DNA of 64,000 nt from Escherichia coli (GTDB lineage: Bacteria > Pseudomonadota > Gammaproteobacteria > Enterobacterales > Enterobacteriaceae). The stretch is from NCBI RefSeq assembly GCF_003334305.1, contig NZ_QOWS01000008.1; one strand, written 5' to 3'. The translations under genes were made by a program, and so were the position numbers. Shown one piece after another: positions 29,070-33,581 of this stretch; the stretch's first letter is position 1; each line of letters starts with the position of its first letter. Below the pieces are notes generated by a model that was given only the letters and a program-made list of their open reading frames with translations, did not search any database and was not told where the DNA came from.

Positions 29070-30692
29070 ATGCGCGTTAACAATGGTTTGACCCCGCAAG
29101 AACTCGAGGCTTATGGTATCAGTGACGTACATGATATCGTTTACAACCCAAGCTACGACCTGCTGTATCAGGAAGAGCTCGATCCGAGCCTGACAGGTTA
29201 TGAGCGCGGGGTGTTAACTAATCTGGGTGCCGTTGCCGTCGATACCGGGATCTTCACCGGTCGTTCACCAAAAGATAAGTATATCGTCCGTGACGATACC
29301 ACTCGCGATACTTTCTGGTGGGCAGACAAAGGCAAAGGTAAGAACGACAACAAACCTCTCTCTCCGGAAACCTGGCAGCATCTGAAAGGCCTGGTGACCA
29401 GGCAGCTTTCCGGCAAACGTCTGTTCGTTGTCGACGCTTTCTGTGGTGCGAACCCGGATACTCGTCTTTCCGTCCGTTTCATCACCGAAGTGGCCTGGCA
29501 GGCGCATTTTGTCAAAAACATGTTTATTCGCCCGAGCGATGAAGAGCTGGCAGGTTTCAAACCAGACTTTATCGTTATGAACGGCGCGAAGTGCACTAAC
29601 CCGCAGTGGAAAGAACAGGGTCTGAACTCCGAAAACTTCGTGGCGTTTAACCTGACCGAGCGCATGCAGCTGATTGGCGGCACCTGGTACGGCGGCGAAA
29701 TGAAGAAAGGGATGTTCTCGATGATGAACTACCTGCTGCCGCTGAAAGGTATCGCTTCTATGCACTGCTCCGCCAACGTTGGTGAGAAAGGCGATGTTGC
29801 GGTGTTCTTCGGCCTTTCCGGCACCGGTAAAACCACCCTTTCCACCGACCCGAAACGTCGCCTGATTGGCGATGACGAACACGGCTGGGACGATGACGGC
29901 GTGTTTAACTTCGAAGGCGGCTGCTACGCAAAAACTATCAAGCTGTCGAAAGAAGCGGAACCTGAAATCTACAACGCTATCCGTCGTGATGCGTTGCTGG
30001 AAAACGTCACCGTGCGTGAAGATGGCACTATCGACTTTGATGATGGTTCAAAAACCGAGAACACCCGCGTTTCTTATCCGATCTATCACATCGATAACAT
30101 CGTTAAGCCGGTTTCCAAAGCGGGTCACGCAACGAAAGTTATCTTCCTGACCGCAGACGCCTTTGGTGTGCTGCCGCCGGTTTCTCGTCTGACTGCCGAT
30201 CAAACCCAGTACCACTTCCTCTCTGGCTTCACCGCCAAACTGGCCGGTACTGAGCGTGGCATCACCGAACCGACACCAACCTTCTCCGCTTGCTTCGGCG
30301 CGGCGTTCCTGTCGCTGCACCCAACTCAGTACGCAGAAGTGCTGGTAAAACGTATGCAAGCGGCAGGTGCGCAGGCGTATCTGGTTAACACCGGCTGGAA
30401 CGGCACTGGAAAACGTATCTCGATTAAAGATACCCGCGCTATTATCGACGCCATCCTCAACGGTTCGCTGGATAACGCAGAAACTTTCACTCTGCCGATG
30501 TTTAACCTGGCGATCCCAACCGAACTGCCGGGCGTAGACACGAAGATTCTCGATCCGCGTAACACCTACGCTTCCCCGGAACAGTGGCAGGAAAAAGCCG
30601 AAACCCTGGCGAAACTGTTTATCGACAACTTTGATAAATACACCGACACCCCTGCGGGTGCTGCGCTGGTAGCGGCAGGTCCGAAGCTGTAA
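29070..30692 (+). CDS. pckA: phosphoenolpyruvate carboxykinase (ATP)
   Basis: 540 aa from [12 protein letters not shown]; kinase-1a motif GLSGTGKTT. Confidence 0.95.
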
Positions 30693-30711
30693 TCAGCTGA
30701 TATCTCATTGA

Positions 30712-30742
30712 CCCCTTATCCAAACGGATAAGGGGTTTTTTT
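30712..30742 (+). terminator. intrinsic terminator of pckA
   Basis: ccccttatcc-aaac-ggataagggg hairpin followed by ttttttt. Confidence 0.7.
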
Positions 30743-30763
30743 ATATCTGATTAGCTATCAATA

Positions 30764-30784
30764 TGTACACGGTACACTTATAAT
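30764..30784 (+). promoter_or_regulatory. candidate promoter/operator of the toxin-antitoxin pair
   Basis: tgtac-acg-gtaca inverted repeat (also reads as GTACAC-g-GTACAC) abutting a TATAAT hexamer at 30779..30784; aggatg RBS 4 nt before the ATG. Confidence 0.35.
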
Positions 30785-30808
30785 AATCAATAGACCGCAG
30801 GATGCATT

Positions 30809-31126
30809 ATGTTCACCTTTATTGAACTACAAGGATTTAGCAAACGCCGCCAGTTATTGTTACCTGATGATGAGTTCCGGGCTTTTCAGGAACTACTCAT
30901 TCAAGATCCCACTGCCGGTGACATTATCGCAGGCACAGGCAGTTTTAGAAAAATTCGCTGGAACCGTTCTGGAATGGGGAAACGGGGTGGCATTCGGATA
31001 ATTTATTACAACGTAACACGCAATGGCCGAATTTATCTGGCGTTGATTTATCCTAAAAATGAACAGGATGATTTAACAGAAGAACAAAGAAAGGCATTGA
31101 AACTATTGTCAGAGAAGCTGCTTTAA
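30809..31126 (+). CDS. RelE/ParE-superfamily toxin, HigB-2-like
   Basis: 105 aa; ...GTGSFRKIRWNRSGMGKRGGIRIIYY...LALIYPKNEQDDL... resembles Vibrio HigB-2 as I recall it. Confidence 0.7.
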   Translation: MFTFIELQGFSKRRQLLLPDDEFRAFQELLIQDPTAGDIIAGTGSFRKIRWNRSGMGKRGGIRIIYYNVTRNGRIYLALIYPKNEQDDLTEEQRKALKLLSEKLL

Positions 31127-31184
31127 TGTTGAAGCTCCACAAATTCCACCATGGTCGAAATGCCAACGGAGACATTGAAAACAG

Positions 31185-31481
31185 ATGAAAGATGAATTAT
31201 TTGCTGATCTTCTTGCCAGCGCAGAAGAAATGGTACGCATCGAAAAGGGTGAAGAAACGCCTGAACCAGAGCACGTCCATACTTTTAGCGAGATCGATGT
31301 AAAAGCGATCCGTGAAGCAACGGGTTTACGTCAGCAAGATTTTGCTGTCGCCGTAGGGGTAAGTTATGACCTGGTCAAAAGCTGGGAAACCAAACGCCGT
31401 CAGCCTACCGGAGCACCTCGAAAATTGCTCCTGCTTTTGCAAGCGAATCCTTTCATTATCAATCAATTGAAAACAATCTAA
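31185..31481 (+). CDS. HTH (XRE-like) antitoxin, HigA-2-like
   Basis: 98 aa; acidic N-terminus and C-terminal helix-turn-helix (LRQQDFAVAVGVSYDLVKSWE); directly downstream of the toxin. Confidence 0.65.
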   Translation: MKDELFADLLASAEEMVRIEKGEETPEPEHVHTFSEIDVKAIREATGLRQQDFAVAVGVSYDLVKSWETKRRQPTGAPRKLLLLLQANPFIINQLKTI

Positions 31482-31510
31482 AAACGGGAGACACCTTCGC
31501 CTCCCGTTTT
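31481..31510. terminator. bidirectional hairpin between the antitoxin and the envZ 3' end
   Basis: aaaa-cgggag-N10-ctcccg-tttt; A-tract and T-tract on either side. Confidence 0.5.
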
Positions 31511-31512
31511 AT

Positions 31513-33581
<2,069 letters not shown>

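Follow-up and report, generated by a model that had tools for sequence, protein, structure and literature searches.

The E. coli stretch analysed here (64 kb, referred to below as the window) carries two short open reading frames between pckA and envZ, and the locus raises the question of what this pair does and how it came to reside at this site. The initial annotation, made from the sequence, had described it as a HigB2/HigA2-like toxin-antitoxin (TA) pair that forms a strain-specific insertion of roughly 0.75 kb. We examined the pair by homology, residue conservation, predicted folds, purifying selection, an operator motif and distribution, and the best reading of these computed data is that it very probably constitutes a chromosomal type II TA operon of the Vibrio cholerae HigBA2 type.

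The features of the locus are listed in Table 1. Both open reading frames were found on the plus strand with the lengths and the 58-nt gap expected from the initial annotation, and both genes look intact in the window. Their conservation across many genera, under purifying selection, shows that they are not chance reading frames. The two hairpins that were said to enclose the pair, one being the pckA terminator and the other lying at the 3' end of envZ, were also recovered. In RNA folding, the pckA terminator hairpin gave −20.4 kcal/mol (z −4.99); it is part of the occupied haplotype and does not occur in the empty site of K-12, and a homologous hairpin with compensatory changes was found at the occupied sites of Citrobacter and Kluyvera. 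The envZ-side hairpin, which touches the antitoxin stop codon and comes within 2 nt of the envZ stop (31513), folded strongly on both strands (z −5.0 and −4.5) and is also present in K-12. Of the direct repeat on both sides of the terminator, K-12 has ATATCT alone in common, at the left edge. The pckA-envZ spacer is 820 nt long here versus 75 nt in K-12 MG1655, as short as the initial annotation had it for K-12, where the pair is absent. Alignment of the two placed about 789 nt in the window against 44 nt in K-12, a net gain of 745 nt, so that the size given for the insertion was right; its description as strain-specific did not hold, as the pair was found in 1331 of 5426 E. coli genomes and in E. 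albertii, Citrobacter and Kluyvera. The module is AT-rich, as had been noted, with a GC content of 0.41–0.43 versus 0.52–0.61 in pckA and envZ. The 58-nt spacer between the two genes showed no significant RNA structure (z +0.66), and among orthologues its sequence is not conserved and its length ranges from −4 nt (a 4-nt overlap) to 85 nt; it was therefore rejected as a regulatory RNA element. An Rfam scan of positions 30600–31600 yielded no match near the gathering score. As a separate observation, a distance of 31 nt separates the module from the envZ end, and the module brings its own pckA terminator; thus strains differ in the insulation between the two core operons.

Table 1. Features between the ends of pckA and envZ, in window coordinates.
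Feature	Position	Strand	Description	Basis
pckA stop codon	30690-30692	+	upstream edge of spacer	
pckA intrinsic terminator	30710..30743	+	hairpin 30710-30737 (12-bp stem, 4-nt loop), then T-run	terminator scan
10-nt direct repeat ATATCT(C/G)ATT	30700-30709 and 30743-30752	.	on both sides of terminator hairpin	
candidate operator TGTACACGGTACA	30764..30776	.	perfect palindrome TGTAC-N3-GTACA	sequence and comparison across loci
-10 hexamer TATAAT	30779..30784	+	perfect match	by eye from sequence
higB2-like toxin gene	30809..31126	+	105 aa, ATG start, AGGA 6 nt upstream; WP_000493756.1	
toxin-antitoxin spacer	31127..31184	+	58 nt; GGAG at 31168-31171, 13 nt from antitoxin ATG	
higA2/nadS antitoxin gene	31185..31481	+	98 aa, ATG start; WP_000650976.1	
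hairpin, bidirectional terminator	31481..31510	.	common to antitoxin gene 3' end and envZ 3' end	

The identity of the first gene product was supported by several independent comparisons. A phmmer search of the PDB matched residues 3–100 to V. cholerae HigB-2 (5ja9, 5ja8 and 8a0x) with an E-value of 1.3e-23 and about 45% identity, and the profile search that had been proposed as a check returned Pfam PF06296 "RelE" with a modest E-value of 1e-5, covering residues 44–104 only. These matches upheld the reading of the protein as a RelE/ParE-type toxin. No match was obtained with the NCBIfam models or with those of PADLOC-DB 2.0, and the classical HigB and HigA models, PF05015 and TIGR02607, were matched by neither protein of the pair in Pfam and NCBIfam. 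In VcHigB2, replacement of Arg51, Arg64, Tyr82 or Lys84 with alanine reduces the activity 170- to 3000-fold (Hadzi et al., PMC5416850), and strand beta3, 65-IIYY-68, slides upon antitoxin binding (PMC5416850). All four catalytic residues are kept in the toxin, where they align with R50, R63, Y81 and K83 and do not vary among 22 aligned orthologues, and the sliding-strand motif IIYY is kept at residues 64–67. An AlphaFold2 model built from this orthologue alignment reached a pLDDT of 87 and a pTM of 0.80; confidence was weak only in the beta2-beta3 loop, a region that is disordered in the HigB2 crystal as well. When this model was searched against the PDB, the best eleven matches were all HigB2 chains (TM 0.76–0.85; 0.81–0.85 for the best superpositions), followed by RelE.

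The second gene product showed the features expected of the partner antitoxin. It matched the NCBIfam model NadS NF041265 with 75.1 bits (cut-off 60) over profile positions 3–92 of 94, the Pfam HTH-XRE models HTH_3 and HTH_31 at residues 39–76, and HigA-2 in the PDB in a full-length alignment (residues 4–91, E 5e-5, about 26% identity), in agreement with the HTH antitoxin first proposed. The predicted structure consisted of a helix (2–20), a lower-confidence linker and a five-helix domain (39–97) with a pLDDT of about 90. HigA2 gave the best PDB matches to it, for the whole protein and for the C-terminal domain alone (TMt 0.84, rmsd 1.7 Å). Assignment to the MqsA type (TIGR03830/PF15731) was rejected: the score was 31.1 bits against a cut-off of 61.8 and covered the HTH part only, the Pfam E-value was 0.11, and the 98 residues include no cysteine, whereas MqsA-type antitoxins have an N-terminal CxxC zinc-binding domain. 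Scores against the HipB-like and DicA models of NCBIfam fell far under the cut-offs, and PADLOC-DB 2.0 gave generic HTH matches only. RefSeq names WP_000650976.1 a "NadS family protein" (gene nadS) and WP_000493756.1 a "type II toxin-antitoxin system RelE/ParE family toxin"; for the name "NadS" we found neither origin nor meaning. With matches and folds both pointing to HigB-2 and HigA-2, the original HigB2/HigA2-like label proved accurate and describes the pair more precisely than RefSeq does with its product names. In the comparison of E. coli with Citrobacter, Ka/Ks was 0.10 for the toxin (Ka 0.129) and 0.014 for the antitoxin (Ka 0.027); amino acid identity between genera was 76–82% for the toxin and 94–96% for the antitoxin, and the Edwardsiella antitoxin was 95% identical.

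Upstream of the toxin gene, the 13-bp palindrome TGTACACGGTACA ends 2 nt before the TATAAT hexamer, and the exact motif TGTAC-N3-GTACA has no second occurrence in the 64-kb window. For 29 related loci, we compared the 160 nt preceding the toxin gene. The exact motif was present in 28 of these, 24 of the 29 having an exact copy 43–56 nt before the toxin start, and a -10-like box follows the motif in orthologues as well. Its single occurrence in the window and its presence before the toxin gene at nearly all related loci make the palindrome a likely candidate for the operator. Most loci carry a second motif about 30 bp further upstream, and in most modules at other chromosomal sites the two motifs flank a TTGAnT -35 box. 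Copies at the pckA-envZ site, whether from E. coli, E. albertii, Citrobacter or Kluyvera, have the proximal motif only, with the pckA terminator standing where the distal one would be. The -35 element of the putative toxin promoter is weak (TATCAA or CTATCA), and a consensus promoter scan reported no plus-strand promoter because this element fell below the threshold; the promoter was thus called from the perfect -10 hexamer and its comparative position alone. V. cholerae HigA2 protects TGTACGC-N5-GCGTACA, from after the -35 element across the -10 element (PMC11006873). The outer bases TGTAC and GTACA are the same in both sites, whereas the gap between these cores is 3 nt here and 9 nt in the V. 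cholerae operator. Of the four residues with which VcHigA2 contacts bases, R77 is kept and three are changed here (R68D, E71K and N72S). Since both the spacing and the contact residues differ from V. cholerae and the support is comparative, we grade the palindrome as a candidate operator.

To describe how widely the pair occurs, we surveyed 5426 complete E. coli genomes. The pair was present at the pckA-envZ site in 1331 of them (24.5%) at 90–100% identity, annotated in RefSeq as a RelE/ParE toxin with nadS, and the E. coli copies were always chromosomal and never plasmid-borne. As had been suggested, the spacer was compared across E. coli genomes, and in a search with the K-12 flanks the site proved to be two-state: among 60 genomes spread down the ranking of all 5426 matching ones, 45 had a contiguous K-12-type spacer and 13 the annotated pair, the rest being one garbled copy (HS-02) and one disrupted locus. 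The garbled loci of HS-02 and BS-04, both 4.5-Mb assemblies, were treated as probable assembly errors and not as alleles. The pair is absent from K-12, O157:H7 and a genuine DH5alpha and present in O104:H4, several ETEC, CFT073, ABU 83972 and Nissle 1917. RelE/ParE similarity was found, and the two genes are not core genes of K-12 and of all E. coli, the two points on which the initial annotation could have failed. Within E. coli, the module is 97.4–100% identical across phylogroups. Among five sampled haplotypes other than that of CFT073, four (98.0–99.1% nucleotide identity to the window) encode the identical toxin protein WP_000493756.1, and the fifth a close variant, WP_000493758.1.

The 97.4% class, represented by CFT073 and A3, carries an internal stop at toxin codon 22 and a 7-bp deletion that takes out one operator half-site, with the antitoxin intact and, in CFT073, identical to that of the window. 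A 136-nt probe spanning both lesions, at an identity of at least 99%, detected this toxin-null allele in 106 of 1330 carriers (about 8%), including CFT073 and Nissle 1917, which indicates that the toxin is dispensable. Outside E. coli, a scan of one genome per species gave 27 loci with the antitoxin directly downstream of the toxin in every one, so that the toxin-first (Hig) order, as well as the pairing, was borne out. The toxin is disrupted in 6 of these 27 loci, 5 of which keep a full-length antitoxin. Loci with a null toxin and a full-length antitoxin were seen in E. coli of the CFT073/Nissle type, E. coli A3, Kluyvera sichuanensis, Phytobacter ursingii, Photorhabdus bodei, Enterobacteriaceae B14 and Photobacterium; the opposite case, a toxin kept after loss of the antitoxin, was observed at no locus examined. 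Loss of the toxin first, with the antitoxin kept, is the order expected from addiction logic. The roughly 92% of carriers with a seemingly intact toxin and the 8% with a null toxin and an operator deletion constitute natural controls, and the null alleles of Nissle 1917 and CFT073, together with the conserved operator motif, make the system easily testable.

Chromosomal homologues of the toxin with 73–83% identity were found in Klebsiella, Citrobacter, Leclercia, Yersinia, Shimwellia and others, one from Klebsiella variicola being already called "Toxin HigB-2" in its source annotation. More distant relatives (<60% identity) were detected by tblastn on 898 plasmids, 306 of them from Acinetobacter. 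Taken as a whole, the family is clearly mobile, both from site to site and across genera. The pckA-envZ spacer is occupied by the pair in E. albertii, Citrobacter gillenii, C. portucalensis, Citrobacter sp. Marseille-Q6884 and Kluyvera ascorbata, and also in Kluyvera sichuanensis, where the toxin is internally deleted; in Klebsiella, Pseudescherichia (P. vulneris) and the rest the sites are unrelated. Across the locus, the E. albertii sequence showed 94.1% identity over 2978 nt.

From these data we infer toxicity, neutralization, RNA cleavage and DNA binding for the pair by the following scheme. The first gene would encode a RelE-fold ribosome-dependent mRNA endonuclease, whose residues R50, R63, Y81 and K83 would cut codons in the ribosomal A site and so halt translation. 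The N-terminal segment of the antitoxin (about residues 1–22) may fold onto the toxin and neutralize it, and its C-terminal five-helix HTH-XRE domain (39–97) is predicted to dimerize and bind TGTACACGGTACA by the -10 box, which would repress the operon. If the labile antitoxin were lost or proteolysed, the toxin would be freed.

A quite different reading of the pair is that it is a decaying remnant, in which the toxin is no longer active in cells and the NadS-type protein persists because it does something else, for example regulating transcription on its own or neutralizing paralogous toxins. The antitoxin is conserved far above the toxin in both identity and Ka, toxin-null loci with a full-length antitoxin occur in several taxa, including the 106 E. 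coli genomes, and K-12 expresses its own nadS at another locus (PMC12350097). However, the toxin frame in the window is intact with all catalytic residues present, the toxin is itself under purifying selection and identical as a protein across diverged E. coli haplotypes, its loss before that of the antitoxin is anyway predicted by addiction logic, and the orphan antitoxins could be merely recent; we therefore regard decay as very unlikely. A less distant alternative retains the same molecular mechanism and differs in the biological role, which would be neither stress response nor selfish maintenance; it would be anti-phage abortive infection triggered by phage infection. Defence against phage is a role of many type II TA pairs, and both the patchy presence of the pair and the movement of its family among sites, genera and about 900 plasmids would suit such a role. 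Against it, the toxin has no PADLOC match and the antitoxin generic HTH matches only, and no defence genes adjoin the site between pckA and envZ, so that a defence role appears unlikely, though somewhat less so than decay. A similarly low probability attaches to the suggestion that the NadS-type antitoxin has a host role beyond toxin control and that the occupied and empty pckA-envZ alleles are a long-lived polymorphism predating E. coli. The strong constraint on the antitoxin and its full-length persistence after toxin loss are the features behind the extra role, and the strong conservation is the sole feature that might, weakly, point past the textbook TA picture. The reading as a HigBA2-type TA operon is thus the one that we retain.

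The history of this operon at the site was the remaining point to be weighed. Recent, strain-specific horizontal insertion into an ancestrally empty spacer, as the initial annotation had it, would fit the low GC content of the module relative to its flanks, the short spacers in 75% of E. coli and in Salmonella-like and Enterobacter-like genomes, the occurrence of closely related modules elsewhere in the genomes of Klebsiella, P. vulneris and others, and a neighbour-joining tree (toxin plus antitoxin) without a clean grouping of the pckA-envZ copies; this tree was poorly resolved on their monophyly and was not used as evidence. Several observations argue against it. All copies between pckA and envZ, in E. 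albertii, three Citrobacter and two Kluyvera species as in E. coli, have in common the site, the pckA terminator hairpin with its compensatory changes and the layout with one operator motif. When E. coli was compared with Citrobacter, Ks was 1.25 for the toxin and 1.87 for the antitoxin versus 0.70–0.98 for pckA, envZ and ompR, and the module has diverged within E. coli across phylogroups. Neither target-site duplications nor mobility genes were found at the locus. The fillers of the empty sites differ genus by genus: those of Salmonella-like and Enterobacter-like genomes, within short spacers, are unrelated to each other and to that of K-12. Recent insertion was accordingly judged as improbable as decay. 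When the 44-nt filler of K-12 was searched by local alignment, no trace of the module was detected (best score 16, matched by 305 of 500 shuffles), and the polarity of the indel is thus not readable from the junction. Occupation of the same site in several genera, together with a module Ks no lower than that of the core genes on either side, makes it at least as likely that the module is an old resident since lost elsewhere as that it was inserted into this strain. The occupied allele is probably old at this site, and independent losses or replacements would plausibly account for the short spacers; an ancient transfer of the module by recombination through the conserved flanks is another possibility.

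With respect to earlier work, a literature search returned nothing for either WP_000493756.1 or WP_000650976.1, and we found no paper that ties a TA system to pckA/envZ in E. coli or that studies or lists the pair at this locus; TA inventories of CFT073 and AIEC list other RelE/YiaG and Hig loci, and this pair is not among them. The family itself is already characterized structurally and biochemically in V. cholerae and Acinetobacter baumannii, and the pair is already annotated in RefSeq; it is an ordinary accessory module and not a new kind of system. The finding adds a well-supported, predicted HigBA2-type module to the list of E. coli TA systems, one that K-12-based TA inventories and multi-TA deletion strains miss because it is absent from K-12. 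It leaves the current view of TA biology unchanged and will not surprise a specialist.

The closest known system is HigB2/HigA2 of the V. cholerae superintegron (PDB 5JA8, 5JAA, 5J9I and 8A0X), which is likewise toxin first. The two toxins, about 45% identical, have in common the R/R/Y/K active site, the IIYY strand and a flexible Gly/Lys-rich beta2-beta3 loop. HigA2 has an N-terminal neutralizing segment, disordered when free, and a C-terminal HTH-XRE domain for dimerization and DNA binding; the same two parts are predicted here, although the antitoxins are only about 26% identical. The V. cholerae inverted repeat overlaps the promoter, and the candidate operator here, with the same TGTAC...GTACA outer bases, adjoins the putative -10 box. 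The V. cholerae pair resides in an integron cassette, whereas the E. coli module occupies a core-gene spacer. HigBA2 of the A. baumannii plasmid pAB120 belongs to the same HigB2-type family at an identity below 60%; it is an RNase system, autoregulated by the antitoxin and the complex, that stabilizes plasmids (PMC5906591). That system is plasmid-borne and serves plasmid maintenance, in contrast to the E. coli copy, which was on no plasmid among the 5426 genomes.

The classical HigBA systems (plasmid Rts1; ygjN-ygjM of K-12) are likewise toxin first, with a RelE-superfamily toxin and an HTH antitoxin, but belong to other families (toxin PF05015, antitoxin TIGR02607), neither of which was matched here. 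PvHigB, which lacks the C-terminal helix, is a distant relative of HigB2 (PMC5416850), and the HigBA structures of K-12 and Shigella ranked only 45–49 in the toxin fold search, with E-values above 0.1. RelE of E. coli was the nearest fold outside HigB2 (Foldseek E 2e-3, TM about 0.6) and has an equivalent active-site layout at a sequence identity of about 13–17%; unlike the pair described here, RelBE is antitoxin first and its antitoxin is of the RHH type. A parallel within the species is provided by higB-1/ybaQ of E. coli B2 and F strains, in which a clade-restricted toxin lies upstream of a conserved HTH antitoxin and, in CFT073, a stop codon truncates the toxin while the antitoxin is retained (bioRxiv 10.1101/2020.05.25.114553). 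The evolutionary pattern is the same as in the pair between pckA and envZ, at another locus and with a toxin of another family; the antitoxin of higB-1/ybaQ is core and its toxin accessory, whereas here both genes are present or absent together.

The toxin gene of the module has a null allele in E. coli, carried by CFT073, ABU 83972, Nissle 1917 and about 100 further genomes. The CFT073-type allele bears two lesions, a stop at codon 22 of the toxin gene and a 7-bp deletion that takes out one half of the candidate operator, and its antitoxin gene is unbroken, the CFT073 copy being identical to that of the window. In Kluyvera sichuanensis, an in-frame internal deletion has reduced the toxin to a remnant of 28 aa, made up of the start and roughly the final ten codons; the antitoxin is intact, and its start is still overlapped by the remnant.

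Coordinates of features in the window and in extracted loci of other genomes
Feature	Locus	Coordinates	Relation
Null-allele region	L003 (CFT073)	655-790	Homologous to window 30744-30890
Toxin remnant	L036 (Kluyvera sichuanensis)	3001-3090	pckA-envZ site
Direct repeat ATATCT(C/G)ATT, 10 nt	Window	30700-30709, 30743-30752	Flanks pckA terminator hairpin
envZ/pckA junction	L010 (E. albertii NBRC 107761, NZ_BBMY01000013.1)	3708-4044	

At the edge matching the direct repeat around the pckA terminator hairpin, K-12 has one ATATCT only. The empty spacers of other genera hold unrelated fillers: one group carries a REP-like hairpin, the other a different terminator hairpin (Salmonella-like loci L039, L040, L042 and L045 versus Enterobacter-like loci L037, L043 and L044). 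The pckA-envZ intergenic region is one of rapid turnover.

In the draft of the E. albertii type strain, envZ is broken at about codon 371 and fused to a 73-nt internal pckA fragment; the junction is either genuine, the product of a rearrangement, or an error of assembly. In HS-02 (L053) and BS-04 (L054), both 4.5-Mb assemblies from one study, fused or truncated "hypothetical protein" ORFs replace the pair, probably through mistakes in sequencing or assembly. Among the complete E. coli genomes, the module was present in two 4.83-Mb genomes labelled "DH5alpha" (NZ_CP026085.1 and NZ_CM135829.1), whose strains were probably mislabelled; it was absent from a 4.58-Mb DH5a and from K-12. The locus also occurred in NZ_OL790696.1, a 4.8-Mb E. 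coli record entered as a plasmid in PLSDB, which is evidently a misfiled chromosome.

K-12 possesses a nadS gene of its own elsewhere in the genome, annotated by PGAP in BW25113 (locus tag RS26030), for which expression has been reported and which is missing from EcoCyc (PMC12350097).
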